Below, in pieces: positions 59,387 to 63,080 of a stretch of DNA of 64,000 nt; position 1 is the stretch's first letter, and each line of letters starts with the position of its first letter. A program made the translations under genes and the position numbers. Origin of the DNA: Thermoplasmatota archaeon (GTDB lineage Archaea > Thermoplasmatota > Penumbrarchaeia > Penumbrarchaeales > Penumbrarchaeaceae); contig CBDDUX010000027.1 of NCBI GenBank assembly GCA_965234725.1, forward strand, positions 1 to 64,000, given 5' to 3'. The notes under the pieces are model-generated. The model was not told where the DNA came from, did not search any database, and worked only from the letters and a program-made list of their open reading frames with translations.

Positions 59387-59743
59387 TCAATCATCTCCCT
59401 CATCATCGTCCTTGTCATCCGTTACTTTCTCACCCTCTACCATCAGGCCTCCGAATGCCATCCGTTCAATGGTCTGGGCTACCCATAATCTCTGGGTATG
59501 ATAATCCACATCATCTCTCAGATGGAGTTCCGAATCTATTTGAACCCTAGCAAGATGGATCCTGGACTCCTTTAGGAGGGGATCCTCAATAATCCCTCCG
59601 ATCAATTTGTACATTTCCTTTGGTCTCTCCAGACACTGGGCAATGTCTTCCATGAATTTTGGAACCTTTTTTGGGGTCTGTCCCCCATAGAGGACATCAA
59701 GGGTTCTTGATTTCTTTTCATCTATTCTCGATGATGGGACCAT
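59387..59743 (-). CDS. Hypothetical protein
   Basis: 118-aa ORF with an SD-like GAGG and an acidic tail. Confidence 0.55.
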   Translation of the reverse strand: MVPSSRIDEKKSRTLDVLYGGQTPKKVPKFMEDIAQCLERPKEMYKLIGGIIEDPLLKESRIHLARVQIDSELHLRDDVDYHTQRLWVAQTIERMAFGGLMVEGEKVTDDKDDDEGDD

Positions 59744-59838: not shown

Positions 59839-60483
59839 ATGCCCCATTTCATCATGGACCGTTACAAGGTGGATGTTGGAAAGATCGTTTGCGTGGTAAG
59901 TGATAACGGAGATGGTGTGTGTGATTTCTATCTCAAACCTCAGGGTTCTATCTCATCCGATGGATCGGATACCGTGATCCCCGATGGAGAAGATCGTCTG
60001 GCCTTCTCAATGATGCTTGGTATCGCCATCGGAGAGAGAACGATAGGAGATCCCCGAACCTTGATGAGGTCCATACTTGGAATGGGAGTGATGATAGACC
60101 ATCATCTGACAAAGGATAACAGGACCGAAATGTTAAAGCACCTCAGGGATCCAGTAATATCAGGAAGGGACGGTTTTTGTACCATTTCTGAATTCTTACC
60201 AATGAAGAAGATCGGTGACCCTTATGGATTGGAGGCATATCTCCAGGTCAACGAGGAGGAGAAACTGGAGATGTCAACCCGGGATATGATAACAACGATA
60301 GAGGACGCATTGGGTTCGATCGGCAGGCATATCACCCTGTTCCCCGGAGATCTGGTCGGTATATGGCTAGATGGTATCGATCGCCCTTCATTCCCCGGTG
60401 ACCTGATCGAAGGAGGGATATCCGGCCTATCCACTATCACTGCGAGGATCGTTGAAAAGGAGGCCGGTCCACCAAACCCTTGA
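59839..60483 (+). CDS. Fumarylacetoacetate-hydrolase-family protein, divergent
   Basis: GKIVCV, FYLKP, TLFPGDLV and PGDLIEGGISGL follow the FAH layout, but the metal ligands are not evident. Confidence 0.65.
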   Translation: MPHFIMDRYKVDVGKIVCVVSDNGDGVCDFYLKPQGSISSDGSDTVIPDGEDRLAFSMMLGIAIGERTIGDPRTLMRSILGMGVMIDHHLTKDNRTEMLKHLRDPVISGRDGFCTISEFLPMKKIGDPYGLEAYLQVNEEEKLEMSTRDMITTIEDALGSIGRHITLFPGDLVGIWLDGIDRPSFPGDLIEGGISGLSTITARIVEKEAGPPNP

Positions 60484-60718
60484 AATCTCTCAAGGGTCAA
60501 GGGATCATGAGAAAATTGTGGATGAGAAAAGCGAAATCCATTTATATCAAATTACCAGATTTTCCAATGGAGGATCCATATATTCCTGAAAGAGGATGGA
60601 ATTTGTATAGTTTAGTAGCATTTTTAAGGAAGATCCGATCATTACTCTATAATTCGTTGGGAATACTTTCTTTAATTATAAAGAGTAAAAATGTTATTTT
60701 TTCCACTGGAAAAGTATC

Positions 60719-60732
60719 ATAAATATTAAATA
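60719..60732 (+). promoter_or_regulatory. Archaeal TATA-like promoter for the large RNA candidate
   Basis: ATAAATATTAAATA lies about 25 nt before the first paired segment at 60756. Confidence 0.5.
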
Positions 60733-60755
60733 TTCCCTGTGTATATGGTGAATTT

Positions 60756-61612
60756 GCCCAGTAAAGGTCGCCTACCAACGGTCCACTTTGTCCGGATCGG
60801 TAGCGATCCCTGGCGCCACAAAGGGGATCTGAATGAACTTTCTCACGAAAGTCCGTTCAGTTTGGAAGTATAGTTCGGTTAGGGATTTGGGATTTCGGTC
60901 CTTTATCTTCTTCCTAAACTATCATTGGACCTGCCCCTTGTCCTGATCCGCACCTCCCAACAAGAAACCACCTTCGGGTCGTTGAAAGAAAGGTTATGCG
61001 GAAATGGTCCCTTCGGGGACCTTAAAAGGAGAAGGGACCTATCATACTTCGGTATGGCAGAAGGACAGGCAAGTCCAACCCTCCAAGACAGAACCCCTTT
61101 CCAAAGGAACCTTCCCCGGAAGGAACCCAAGGAGAGGAAAGATGTCATGGGAACCAGAAACCCCCTCTCCCTCTTTCGGGAGGAAGAGATGGGAAGAAAG
61201 GAACCCATTGGAGGTTTCCGATCCCAAGGGCCTTCGTCCTCGGATGAAGGAACAAAGGAGAAGAATGCCCGGGAAACAACCCAAATTTCCCAAAACCTTC
61301 TTCGGAAGGTCAAAGAAATAAAGGATGGATCCCACCCTATCGGAAAAGGCCGGCAACCATCTCCGGATGGAGGCCGATCTGGAACGAATAGGACTGGCAC
61401 ATTGGACGCGCTAGGACCTCATCCCTCGGGATAAAGGTCCGATACCCTTCGTAAAGGTTCCGGGTCCCCCTGGAGCCTTGAAAGAGGGTGATGGCCTCAA
61501 GGCTCAGTGGACTTCCTGGTCGTCGGTTCCCGACGATTTCCCGGGTTCCTCACGGAACCATGTCAGCGCCAAGGGACTGGGTTGGCAGGAGAAGGTAAAA
61601 CTTCTCCTGCCA
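60756..61612 (+). ncRNA. Putative large (~860 nt) highly structured non-coding RNA of unknown class
   Basis: End-to-end helices GCCCAGT/ACTGGGT and CCCTGGCGC/GCGCCAAGGG, many nested stems, multiple C(UUCG)G loops, A-rich linkers and a terminal 12-bp hairpin. Confidence 0.75.
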
Positions 61613-61620
61613 TTACTTTT
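61583..61620 (+). terminator. Terminal hairpin with T-tract
   Basis: TGGCAGGAGAAG-gtaaaa-CTTCTCCTGCCA is a perfect 12-bp stem followed by TTACTTTT. Confidence 0.6.
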
Positions 61621-61811
61621 CCATGAAAACTATTATTCAATCAGTAATTCATGGGAAAGTCCGCTAAATGAAATATTTCATCGACGGTTTAATTTAGCTG
61701 GACCTTGAAATTACGCTGTATTTTGATATTGACGTGAGTAATTTACAAGTGGAATCATTGTTCCATGAAAACTATTATTCAATCAGTAATTCATGGGAAA
61801 GTCCGCTAAAT
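61619..61811. repeat. Two identical 51-bp direct repeats separated by 91 bp
   Basis: TTCCATGAAAACTATTATTCAATCAGTAATTCATGGGAAAGTCCGCTAAAT at 61619-61669 and 61761-61811. Confidence 0.95.
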
Positions 61812-61916
61812 CCAATCTCACCATGACCATGGATCCCATTATTGCCCTATTGCAGGTTCTGTATACTGTGGAGAGTCTTTTTATATGTCCACTTGGTTGA
61901 CCGGCCAGGTGCCAAG

Positions 61917-63080
61917 ATGTTCTCCAAGCGGATCCGCAACGTCCAGCCCTCAGGTACCGTGATGCTCTCGAACAAGGTCAAGCGATTGAAGGATCAGGGC
62001 CTCGATATTCTTTCTTTCACCCTCGGAGAACCTGATTTTACAACGCCTCCCAACATCATTGAAGCGGCAAAGAAAGCGCTGGACGATGGATTGACCCATT
62101 ACACATCCTCCTTCGGGATATCGGAACTCAGGGAGGAGGTAGCAAGATCGGTCAAGGAAAAGAATGGTATTGATTGTGATTCGGATAATGTTATAATCCT
62201 TCCAACCAAGCTAGCCCTGTATATCGCCATCCAGACATTTGTCAATCCTGGAGAACAGGTGATCTACCCCAATCCGGGATGGGTATCATACGGCCCGATG
62301 ATAACGCTTGCAAAAGGAACCCCTGTACCTGTCAGGATGCAGTATGACAATGGGTGGTACTGGGACCCAAACGATATCAAAAGCCACATCACAGAGAAGA
62401 CAAAGGCCATAATAATGAACACCCCCTCCAATCCCACAGGCTCCCTCGTATCCAGAGATATACAGAAGGAGCTCCTGGAGATCGCAGAGGAAAAGGATAT
62501 TCTGATAATCTCGGATGAGGTATACGAGAATCTTGTCTATGAAGATGAACACCACTCGATTGCATCCCTCCCAAACGCAATGGATAGGATCGTTACAGTC
62601 TCCGGATTCTCCAAGAGCTATGCAATGACAGGATGGAGAATAGGCTGGTTAGTAGCTACGAAAGAGACGGTAAAGATGGTCAACAAATTCCAACAGCATT
62701 CATTGACCTGCCTCCCTCAATTCATTCAGATGGGAGCCCTGGCCGCTCTCAAGAACGGTGGTCAATGTGTGGAGGAGATGCGGCAGGAATTCAAATGCAG
62801 AAGGGACCTGTTGATACCGTTGTTGAACGAAATAGACGGAATTTCGTGCGAGGTACCAAAAGGAGCCTTTTATGCATTCTTCAAGATGGACGTTGGATTC
62901 AAATCTATGGACCTTGCTGAAATGCTATTATACAAAGCCCATGTGGCCCTTACCCCTGGTTCAGCTTTCGGATCTGCTGGTGACGGCTTCCTCAGGATGT
63001 CCTATGCGGCATCCAGAGAAGACCTGATAGAAGGGGCAAAGAGGATCGGTGAGTTCACAAGGTCCCTCAGTAAAAAATAG
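61917..63080 (+). CDS. PLP-dependent aminotransferase class I/II (aspartate aminotransferase-like)
   Basis: Motifs GEPDFTTP, NTPSNPTG, ISDEVYE, SGFSKSYAMTGWRIG and PGSAFG...FLRMSYA. Start at ATG 61917. Confidence 0.93.
   Translation: MFSKRIRNVQPSGTVMLSNKVKRLKDQGLDILSFTLGEPDFTTPPNIIEAAKKALDDGLTHYTSSFGISELREEVARSVKEKNGIDCDSDNVIILPTKLALYIAIQTFVNPGEQVIYPNPGWVSYGPMITLAKGTPVPVRMQYDNGWYWDPNDIKSHITEKTKAIIMNTPSNPTGSLVSRDIQKELLEIAEEKDILIISDEVYENLVYEDEHHSIASLPNAMDRIVTVSGFSKSYAMTGWRIGWLVATKETVKMVNKFQQHSLTCLPQFIQMGALAALKNGGQCVEEMRQEFKCRRDLLIPLLNEIDGISCEVPKGAFYAFFKMDVGFKSMDLAEMLLYKAHVALTPGSAFGSAGDGFLRMSYAASREDLIEGAKRIGEFTRSLSKK

Follow-up and report, generated by a model that had tools for sequence, protein, structure and literature searches.

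To our knowledge, large intricate RNAs other than rRNA, RNase P RNA, SRP RNA and introns are very rare. The OLE, GOLLD and ROOL RNAs are bacterial or phage-borne, and they have lately been shown to form unexpected megastructures. According to published descriptions, ROOL averages 581 nt, many GOLLD RNAs exceed 800 nt, and OLE, ROOL and GOLLD are all homo-oligomers. By the same descriptions ROOL and GOLLD lie near tRNAs and/or in prophages, while OLE, of ~600 nt, belongs to Gram-positive extremophilic or anaerobic bacteria and has the Oap proteins as partners.

The window analyzed in this work, a 64-kb stretch of DNA from a Thermoplasmatota archaeon, contains near its end (60756–61612, plus strand) what is almost certainly the gene for a real structured RNA of ~830–865 nt, present as one chromosomal copy in the genome. 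An initial annotation, made from the sequence, had likened it in size and ornateness to OLE, GOLLD and ROOL. The size range does agree; an Rfam match and the tRNA/prophage or host context of those RNAs do not. Like ROOL and GOLLD as published, it is non-coding, several hundred to more than 800 nt long, rich in multi-stem junctions and supported by covariation. It differs from both in that their Rfam models do not match it, it comes from an archaeon, its one copy sits in a stable housekeeping neighborhood with no tRNA in 64 kb, and its size varies more than two-fold between genera. OLE is likewise large and ornate and, as published, the RNA part of a ribonucleoprotein, the model also favored here; again there is no Rfam match, and the hosts belong to different domains of life (this genome matches the archaeal models of RNase P and SRP RNA with 189 and 144 bits). 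With archaeal RNase P and SRP RNAs it shares a structured body with paired 5′ and 3′ ends. These RNAs are encoded elsewhere in the genome, RNase P (RF00373) at C60:12332-12652 with 189.1 bits and SRP (RF01857) at C10:39297-39616 with 144.1 bits, and neither model matches within the window, as the initial annotation had anticipated. We use large ornate ncRNA as an operational class and not as a homology family: this RNA is longer than 500 nt and non-coding, with many junctions and compensatory pairs.

Identity and distribution of the RNA

The plus strand folds with a minimum free energy of -364.1 kcal/mol, compared to -302.65 ± 7.6 for 20 shuffled sequences (z = -8.09, none of the 20 as good), the kind of comparison suggested with the original proposal; the minus strand gives z = -5.42. 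The genus consensus pairs 542 of its 865 nt, in 36 helices with 19 hairpin loops. G-U cells (122) outnumber A-C cells (34) among the 1351 of this consensus, so that the plus strand is favored. The idea of an ~860-nt ornate RNA read from the plus strand agrees with the fold z score, the covariation and the G-U excess.

Within the genus, 272 pairs have 92.5% of their cells paired. Compensatory changes occur in 76 of these pairs, where shuffles give 32.5 ± 4.0 (none of 500 reaching 76) and slid controls 12–20. Family-wide, in an alignment fitted to the model, the 5′ hairpins show 26 compensatory pairs out of 33 (shuffles 17.5 ± 1.9, 0 of 500 as high; slid controls 7–14). Sequences from related genomes are not independent, and the shuffle counts therefore overstate significance. 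The alignments combine E-INS-i with covariance models of parts of the RNA and are not full-length structural ones. Compensatory changes, proposed beforehand as a check, are many in the homologs, both within the genus and across the family.

It is extremely improbable that the locus is instead a protein-coding gene (the 169-codon frame in Table 1 or an antisense partner) or a chance GC-rich spacer. Open frames of 165–183 codons do exist on both strands, but the 169-codon frame has no Pfam match, the longest frames share no place, strand or frame among 18 homologs, and these homologs differ by many indels, while compensatory changes far above controls speak against both coding sequence and spacer. 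The first reading of this gap as devoid of any credible protein was sound.

None of the 4227 models of Rfam 15 matched at gathering score anywhere in the window or in eight homologous loci, and in E-value mode 60600–61900 returned only E-values of 0.6–8.9, the top match scoring 18 bits where the cut-off is 70 bits, in keeping with the suggested novelty. No description of such an archaeal RNA appeared in the literature searched, including two 2026 genome-language-model preprints; the supplements of these preprints and of PMC5737381 may list it as an unnamed cluster or motif. Neither Rfam 15 nor the literature searched shows an archaeal counterpart. Three other candidates were discarded by eye: a tRNA-like 5′ end (genera g5 and g3 do not keep the local pairing 60756-61/60811-16), an H/ACA guide of several hairpins (no K-turn, K-loop or ACA boxes seen) and Shine-Dalgarno or anti-Shine-Dalgarno mimicry (motifs unconserved or in stems).

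Model R1, which covers the 5′ 77 nt, found the RNA in 22 of 23 other genomes of the family, with at least one match in each of the seven genera (six of seven in g6). It gave no match in 13 genomes that belong to the class but not to the family, nor in a phylum-wide sample of 134 non-family genomes. A repeated family-level BLASTN search of 24 genomes added nothing. Among the genomes sampled, the RNA is restricted to one family of uncultured sediment Thermoplasmatota. Scanning metagenome contigs with a 24-letter motif retrieved only two contigs, whose RNAs are g6-like, measure 985 and 995 nt and have the shared promoter. A 17-letter degenerate motif, too short for that collection, gave at least 120 matches in genome contigs, all in unrelated bacteria; we took these for chance and draw nothing about distribution from them.

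Conserved spine and variable interior

Nested long-range helices P1, P2, P4 and P5, with a tentative P3 among them, join the opening ~180 nt of the RNA to its final ~90 nt, and side hairpins branch from both strands of this spine (Table 1). Nearly all the sequence-invariant nucleotides sit here, in the loop A-Y-N-UUGUCC of the 5′ hairpin (60785-93, almost invariant), in CAAAGGGG and in GUUCGGUUAGGG. The RNA starts at about 60756 and P1 closes it at 61582, followed by a hairpin and T tract at 61583-61622.

Table 1. Coordinates of the RNA gene, its structural elements and its flanking signals in the window.
Feature	Position	Strand	Partner or remarks
Upstream element AAAATGTTATTTTTTCCACTGGAAA ending in palindrome TTTCCAnTGGAAA	60688-60712	+	~45-70 nt upstream of RNA start
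TATA box TTAAATA	60726-60732	+	Centered ~27 nt before 60756; TTATATA in most homologs
Conserved ATATGG	60743-60748	+	Downstream of TATA box
RNA body, first to last base of P1	60756-61582	+	827 nt; fold, homologs, covariation, RNA contigs
P1 5′ strand GCCCAGU	60756-60762	+	Pairs with ACUGGGU 61576-61582
5′ hairpin, 3-nt bulge AAC, 9-nt loop	60767-60807	+	Most conserved part of the RNA
P2 5′ strand CCCUGGCGC	60808-60816	+	Pairs with GCGCCAAGGG 61566-61575; genus consensus
Conserved CAAAGGGGA	60819-60827	+	Nearly invariant in alignment A2; tentative P3 with 61538-61542
Hairpin with C(UCAC)G loop	60829-60860	+	Family-wide alignment A5
P4 5′ strand GGAAGU	60864-60869	+	Pairs with ACUUCC 61511-61516
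Long hairpin with conserved GUUCGGUUAGGG	60870-60922	+	UUCG loop 60894-97; alignment A5
P5 5′ strand CAUUGGACCU	60923-60932	+	Pairs with AGGCUCAGUG 61500-61509; closes interior; genus consensus
169-codon open frame within RNA gene	60925-61434	+	Judged no gene
Domain closed by CCCUUGUCCU 60935-44 / AGGAGAAGGG 61027-36	60935-61036	+	Holds hairpins 60947-61002 and 61004-61023
Variable array: extended hairpins, C(YYCG)G caps, A/G-rich linkers	61039-61392	+	
3′ domain	61395-61497	+	Helices 61412-42, 61443-49/61484-90, 61454-79; genus consensus, pair counts
Two 3′-strand spine hairpins	61519-61559	+	61519-37, and 61544-59 with C(UCAC)G loop
12-bp 3′ hairpin	61583-61612	+	T-rich tail 61613-61622; terminator scan

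P1 and P2 recur in independent folds with compensatory pair types. P1 was predicted in 13–17 of 19 single-sequence folds (types CG 15/UA 2; AU 7/GC 9/GU 1; UA 11/AU 2). P2 appears also in those of other genera, with CG/UA and GC/AU/GU types, although any one of its column pairs is found in up to 9 of 19 sequences, since two alignment registers split the counts. P4, P5 and the helix 60935-44/61027-36 covary between genera. For P4, a duplex search placed covarying partners at the homologous 3′ position (UGAGAC/GUCUC, UGUGAAAC/GUUUCAC, AUAUGGAGCU/AAGUUCCAU, AAGCGAUA/UAUCGCU). The P5 partner in other genera lies just 5′ of that of P4 (CAGAUGAUCU/GGAUCAUUUG, CAGAGGAUCU/AGGUCCUUU, UAUCGGACCAUU/GAUGGUCC.AGAUG); within genus g1 the unconstrained duplex search prefers other sites for it. 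RNAalifold pairs GGGGA with UUCCC in the genus as P3, but the unconstrained search offers several CCCC partners for GGGGA and P3 is accordingly left tentative.

The 5′ hairpin has 15 pairs, seven of them compensatory, with 93–100% of cells paired (alignment A2, 18 sequences). Compensatory pairs make up 10 of 12 in the hairpin 60829-60860 and 16 of 21 in 60870-60922 (A5, 17 sequences). Both 3′-strand hairpins show compensatory changes in the genus consensus, and the number of hairpins at this place differs between genera.

In 14 of 16 sequences the helix 60935-44/61027-36 occupies one and the same site (position 264-274), and its compensatory variants include GCCUUUGCUCU/GGAGUGAAGGU and UCUGCUGGCCC/GGGACAGCGGA. 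Beyond it, the array seen in Table 1, its hairpins capped by tetraloops of high stability, grows and shrinks between genera, taking the total RNA from 641 nt (g3) through 865 nt (g1) to ~1548 nt (g2), with large indels between homologs and swaps of UUCG, CUCG, UCCG and CCCG loops at homologous places. The 3′ domain is highly conserved in the genus. The interior structure is provisional in its details.

Much of the fold drawn in the initial annotation survives these comparisons, and some of its individual helices need replacing. Its closing stems GCCCAGT/ACTGGGT (60756-62/61576-82) and CCCTGGCGC/GCGCCAAGGG (60808-16/61566-75) and its hairpin 60767-60807 are present both in the single-sequence fold and in the genus consensus, and its 3′ hairpin was recovered. 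So were its tetraloops: C(UUCG)G at 61012-15, 61048-51 and 61301-04, C(UCCG)G at 61362-65, C(CUCG)G at 61239-42 and 61425-28, and C(UCAC)G at 60843-46 and 61550-53. Its helix 61080-86/61208-14, inside the variable array, is kept in all five genus sequences, with a compensatory variant UCUCCC/GGGAGA, its support lying within the genus. Three elements are not supported by the homologs. For the pseudoknot 60786-91/60818-23, pairing holds in 69% of cells, one pair is disrupted in 15 of the 17 sequences, and informative covariation is lacking. The stem 61215-22/61339-46 holds in two of five genus sequences. The stem 60925-44/61062-78 belongs to the minimum free energy folds of the window RNA and its 96% twin only (2 of 17 sequences); homologs keep instead 60935-44/61027-36 and 60923-32/61500-09. 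Family-wide it is 49–69% canonical on a sequence-only alignment, where register shifts blur column-wise helix tests and per-sequence folds and duplex searches are more telling.

Promoter, transcripts and neighboring genes

Archaeal promoters are recognized by an established TATA spacing, from which we predict that the RNA gene has a promoter of its own. A TATA box ~25 nt upstream had been proposed, and the TATA-like TTAAATA at 60726-32 is a conserved column block in an 18-sequence alignment; the promoter blocks are conserved in all genera. The element farther upstream aligns before the RNA in loci of all seven genera and is presumably a regulator site. Its exact palindrome TTTCCAnTGGAAA occurs at six places in the genome; on the contigs of the other five sites there are two tRNA genes, both more than 1 kb away.

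At the other end, the terminator scan recovered the proposed 12-bp hairpin (61583-61612) followed by TTACTTTTCC, and we presume that hairpin and T-rich tail are a termination or processing signal. Six of the 12 hairpin pairs are compensatory in the genus, and other genera conserve its stem sequence GAUGGGGGAAG..CUUCCCCCAUYGUCAUUU, which one homolog (L017) lacks.

Fourteen RNA-labeled runs from 10 study codes contain about half or more of the sampled words of the RNA. The transcript that had been looked for is represented by metatranscriptome contigs from four of the 14 runs (four studies), which lie on 60768-61581 in pieces of up to 544 nt and show neither strand, ends nor level of the RNA. 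In these four runs the flanks (60200-60735 and 61607-62200) and the 3′ hairpin 61583-61612 are uncovered, a lack of cover that proves nothing. Contigs of two studies end at 61581, one continuing into adapter-like letters and the other into unlike letters, at most a hint that the mature RNA ends with P1. A circular RNA was also considered and dropped, no back-joint being seen by eye among the metatranscriptome contigs listed.

The neighbors are genes for a thioredoxin reductase, an FAA-hydrolase family protein and an aspartate aminotransferase, in a gene order that is alike across the family, and ARAGORN found no tRNA gene in the 64-kb window. The only constant neighbor is the aspartate-aminotransferase-like gene; some loci lack the small acidic protein or the FAA-hydrolase gene upstream. 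Outside the family, matches to the FAA-hydrolase in four of five genomes are weak (26–29% identity) and have other neighbors, and its synteny there gives no clue to the origin of the RNA.

In nearly all loci with enough downstream sequence, the aminotransferase gene comes next on the same strand, as expected if the RNA were a cis-acting leader or processed 5′ part of its mRNA. We consider this very improbable. Gene order is conserved as a whole in the family, and adjacency to the aminotransferase therefore says little. Besides, a hairpin and T tract end the RNA, and the downstream gene has, by eye, a TATA-like TTTTTATAT of its own at 61878-86, ~30 nt before its ATG at 61917. The spacer varies, with a 142-nt duplication in this genome, and none of the contigs listed (28 of 83) bridges into the aminotransferase gene.

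Possible roles of the RNA

Our preferred reading, held tentatively, is that the RNA may be a stable ribonucleoprotein scaffold acting in trans. We arrive at it because a conserved core is combined with a hypervariable, indel-tolerant periphery whose inert loop caps are interchangeable. It would be a long-lived architectural RNA, neither a base-pairing regulator nor the leader of the adjoining gene. The conserved spine and 5′ hairpin would provide a specific docking or functional site, and the expandable hairpin array a tolerant scaffold or multivalent platform, comparable to telomerase RNA or the OLE particle. Inspection by eye recognized no K-turn or other known protein-binding motif.

Yeast telomerase RNA has a small conserved core, long fast-evolving arms that tolerate indels, and large size differences between related species. 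The likeness concerns this evolutionary pattern only, the archaeal RNA having no template, reverse transcriptase or known partner. The pattern of conserved core and variable periphery also fits a ribozyme or a self-assembling RNA.

A ribozyme would have its active site in the spine, the 5′ hairpin loop and junction nucleotides, with a stabilizing periphery as in RNase P and group I/II introns. The RNA is indeed large, with many junctions and a few invariant unpaired nucleotides near a multi-helix core, and large bacterial RNAs of such complexity are, according to the literature, often catalytic. Nevertheless, it resembles no catalytic Rfam family, neither a substrate nor a processing site is evident, and its size variation exceeds that usual for ribozymes. 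We regard catalysis as quite improbable.

An RNA-only particle, self-assembling as a homo-oligomer like OLE, ROOL and GOLLD, would use the invariant loop or other conserved single strands as inter-chain contacts and the hairpin array as a wall or struts. In size and ornateness it falls within the published range of those RNAs. The invariant 9-nt loop lacks a supported partner within the molecule, A-rich linkers are many, and one genus has 14 GNRA-type hairpins with 8 of 13 spacings at 71–79 nt. On the other hand, the majority of hairpins end in YYCG loops, a type that usually makes no contacts, and a size that varies two-fold is not easily reconciled with one closed geometry. The tRNA/prophage setting of ROOL and GOLLD is also missing here, the 64-kb window having no tRNA. 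Nor did casual inspection notice loops that vary yet stay palindromic, the signature used for inter-chain kissing loops in the literature. An assembly of RNA only seems unlikely.

The RNA could also be a multivalent sponge or decoy, its hairpin modules and A/G-rich linkers (AAAGG, AAGGA, GGAAC) sequestering many copies of one RNA-binding protein, or else ribosomal subunits. Genera differ in module number, the RNA is present in many RNA libraries, and among 11 representatives the words AAAGGA and AAGGAA number 29 and 20, with 2.2 expected for each. Still, no single motif stands out, as A/G-rich words are all enriched alike and many of them face CCUUC-type strands within stems; what is conserved in sequence lies mainly in the spine and not in the repeats. 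The CsrB/RsmZ RNAs are bacterial protein sponges with a variable number of repeated hairpin modules and GGA-containing words, both of which the archaeal RNA shares. It differs in being much larger, with long-range closing helices and a conserved core, and in having no defined repeated loop motif. CsrA is bacterial and not known in archaea, and no candidate protein is known. A sponge is improbable.

Beyond the scaffold reading, it is conceivable, though doubtful, that this is the first giant ornate RNA class of archaea, abundant and building a large RNA-only or RNA–protein particle with tandem hairpin modules as its wall and the invariant core as its anchor. Such a particle would be a cellular structure without counterpart among known archaeal ribonucleoproteins. 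Being strongly structured, the RNA is suited to in vitro transcription, chemical probing and cryo-EM, even though its hosts are uncultured. The two-fold range in size about a core that stays fixed is a natural experiment in the growth of large RNAs. Its presence in assemblies of sediment and salt-marsh RNA libraries (10 study codes) suggests that it may be an unannotated major component there.

Identity and distribution of the RNA gene

The candidate RNA gene (60756-61612, + strand) sits between a FAA-hydrolase-family gene (59839-60483) and an aspartate-aminotransferase-like gene with its ATG at 61917, and has a GC content of 0.45-0.59 compared to 0.30-0.33 in the flanking spacers. The locus is neither a known RNA nor a protein gene. 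At gathering score, Rfam 15 gave no match in the 64-kb window or in eight homologous loci, while in E-value mode the RNA region yielded noise only (E 0.6-8.9, the best at 18 bits against a 70-bit cut-off). RNase P and SRP RNA are excluded as identities, each having its copy on another contig of the genome (189.1 and 144.1 bits, respectively, to the archaeal models). The open frame 60925-61434 belongs to no Pfam family and no frame is kept among 18 homologs, whose longest open frames vary in position, strand, and phase, and which are separated by many insertions and deletions; a non-RNA explanation is scarcely credible. In the parts of the literature reached by full-text search, no large ornate archaeal RNA of such kind is described; the present one may be listed, unnamed, in large collections of intergenic clusters or motifs. 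Lacking a published description there, and an Rfam family, it is rated a new class, and the novelty proposed in the initial annotation is probably real.

The gene is single-copy in its genome. BLASTN detected it in 17/23 further genomes of the family and in none of 17 from other families, and a family-level repeat search agreed. With R1, a covariance model built on the initial 77 nt, this rose to 22/23 family genomes, with at least one match in each of the seven genera (g1-g7, g1 being that of the window; 6/7 in g6), and the sole genome missed was rated 62% complete. The same model matched 0/13 genomes from the other families in the class and 0/134 non-family genomes sampled across the phylum, results that describe the genomes searched and do not imply absence. 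Scanning metagenome contigs with a 24-letter motif added two loci that have the same promoter and RNAs of 985 and 995 nt. Gene order around the RNA, with housekeeping neighbours, is kept across the family and not outside it. There is no tRNA gene in the 64-kb window, no mobile-element context was seen around the RNA gene, and no adjoining candidate partner gene is constantly present. A small acidic protein (118 aa; 59387-59743, - strand), encoded between the genes for thioredoxin reductase and the FAA-hydrolase and with no Pfam or NCBIfam family, is found at this position in g1, g6, and g3; it is not a constant companion, as it is missing from this position in g4 and g5.

Fold, covariation, and architecture

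The minimum free energy of 60750-61625 (+ strand) is -364.1 kcal/mol, against -302.65 ± 7.6 in 20 dinucleotide shuffles, none of which equals it (z -8.09; opposite strand, z -5.42). Within g1, five aligned sequences (69-96% identity to the RNA of the window) gave an RNAalifold consensus of 272 pairs in 36 helices, with 92.5% of cells paired and 76 pairs showing compensatory double changes, versus 32.5 ± 4.0 in shuffles (0/500 reaching 76) and 12-20, with 36-56% paired, when partners were slid by 1-3 columns. G-U cells exceed A-C cells (122 vs 34), in line with the + strand being the RNA. A model of the two 5' hairpins 60829-60860 and 60870-60922 (R2, 117 positions), aligning 17 sequences from four genera, had 26/33 compensatory pairs versus 17.5 ± 1.9 in shuffles (0/500) and 7-14 in slid controls, counts that err on the generous side, given related sequences and an alignment fitted to that model. 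In the 5' hairpin 60767-60807, 7/15 pairs are compensatory in 18 sequences.

Nested long-range helices join the 5' ~180 nt with the 3' ~90 nt, and side hairpins leave both strands of these paired ends (see table). For P2, at most 9/19 sequences support any one column pair, as two alignment registers split the counts. The 3' strands of P4 and P5 adjoin in several genera; in g1, P5 rests on consensus fold and position, since a free duplex search there prefers other sites.

Features of the RNA gene and its transcription signals
Feature	Position	Strand	Remarks
Upstream element AAATGTTAyArTTTCCnnTGGAAA	60688-60712	+	Common to all genera, upstream of first paired base
TATA box	60726-32	+	~27 nt before 60756; all genera; TTATATA in most
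ATATGG block	60743-48	+	All genera
P1	60756-62 / 61576-82	+	Recovered independently in 13-17/19 single-sequence folds; CG/UA, AU/GC/GU, UA/AU exchanges
P2	60808-16 / 61566-75	+	Recurs in folds of other genera
P3	60823-27 / 61538-42	+	Possible, tentative
P4	60864-69 / 61511-16	+	Sequence differs between genera, complementarity kept
P5	60923-32 / 61500-09	+	Sequence differs between genera, complementarity kept
First interior domain	closed by 60935-44 / 61027-36	+	Helix in same place in 14/16 sequences, compensatory variants
Run of extended hairpins	between first interior domain and 3' domain	+	
3' domain	61395-61497	+	After extended hairpins
Hairpin, then T run	3' of P1	+	Terminator scan

Much of the structure drawn in the initial annotation is recovered: the closing helices and the hairpin 60767-60807 (by sequence, fold, and consensus), the tetraloop hairpins, the TATA-like box, and the 12-bp hairpin with its T tract, all at the coordinates given there, as well as the stem 61080-86 / 61208-14, which holds in 5/5 genus sequences. 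Other helices proposed there fared worse. The pairing 61215-22 / 61339-46 holds in just 2/5 genus sequences, and the stem 60925-44 / 61062-78 appears in 2/17 folds, those of the RNA in the window and of a homolog 96% identical to it; the 3' half of 60925-44 instead pairs with the equivalent of 61027-36 in 9/17 folds and forms a local hairpin in 5/17. In the suggested pseudoknot 60786-91 / 60818-23, 69% of cells are paired; one of its pairs is disrupted in 15/17 sequences, and the others are conserved and not covarying. By eye, the invariant loop UUGUCC (60785-60793) might conceivably pair with GGACA (g1, g5) or GACAA (g6, g7, g2), which comes after the hairpin 61039-61060 at the homologous place (window 61062-61067).

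Transcription unit and RNA evidence

The stem sequence of the 3' hairpin, GAUGGGGGAAG...CUUCCCCCAUYGUCAUUU, is retained in most genera, one homologous locus (L017) being without it. It is very improbable that the RNA is a leader of the aminotransferase gene, for which a separate TATA-like box was read by eye at 61878-86.

The palindrome TTTCCAnTGGAAA (60688-60712), upstream of the RNA promoter, is kept in 7/7 genera and is possibly a regulator site. It has five further exact sites in the window's own genome (G000; contigs C3:23414, C11:18936, C51:919, C51:1074, and C62:26986), with a TATA-like box again following at the C11 site; tRNA genes, the one kind of stable RNA gene checked, lie within 1 kb of none of the five. 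A 63-nt direct repeat with 92% identical copies (61612-61674 and 61754-61816, spacing 142 nt) starts at the final base of the RNA's 3' hairpin, and each copy contains an inverted repeat TTCCATGAA...TTCATGGGAA with half-sites resembling the palindrome.

Twenty public runs, all from marine sediment, sediment, or salt marsh, contain the RNA stretch or part of it. Of these, 14 are registered as RNA and fall under 10 study codes, some possibly representing a single campaign. Contigs of four RNA runs (four studies), compared with 60200-62200, cover 60768-61581 in pieces of up to 544 nt (60776-61319) and include several strain variants. Transcripts, sought as a check on the initial annotation, match the locus, in assembled contigs that tell no strand, ends, or level. 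The flanks and 3' hairpin have no contig cover, which carries no weight as evidence. In two studies the contigs break off at 61581, which hints, at most, at a mature RNA whose end is that of P1. In one metatranscriptome run (X3), two joints of one contig each (60833>60917 and 60955>61440) leave out 83 and 484 nt of the RNA; shorter relatives, chimeric assembly, or processing could account for them.

Conserved core, elastic interior, and possible function

Total length, by our own end-finding rules, goes from 641 nt in g3 through 791-804 (g5), 865-1009 (g1), 924-942 (g4), 962-999 (g6), and ~1107 (g7) to ~1548 nt in g2. Invariant sequence clusters in the 5' hairpin loop A-Y-N-UUGUCC, CAAAGGGG, GUUCGGUUAGGG, the P1 3' strand, and the next hairpin. 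C(YYCG)G loops cap the interior hairpins, where UUCG, CUCG, UCCG, and CCCG exchange at homologous places, and CUUCGG occurs 51 times versus 2.9 expected in 11 representatives. The g2 RNA (locus L040) has, at positions ~419-1383, 14 GGGGYRACCC hairpins with GNRA-type loops, versus the YYCG loops of g1, spaced in order by 77, 71, 77, 22, 50, 75, 79, 77, 77, 149, 78, 61, and 61 nt (8/13 within 71-79). In this array, modules have expanded in tandem and the loop type has switched. The loop exchange and the spaced modules suggest that the hairpin tips are interchangeable caps and that the array is a series of modules subject to duplication and loss.

A self-assembling particle made of RNA alone, in the manner of ROOL, GOLLD, or OLE, is rather unlikely; some function outside those listed here is less likely again, a multivalent sponge marginally more so, and a ribozyme further down still. 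The core is invariant where the two ends pair, and the surrounding inert hairpins tolerate change and can expand; on this pattern we tentatively favour a stable ribonucleoprotein scaffold.
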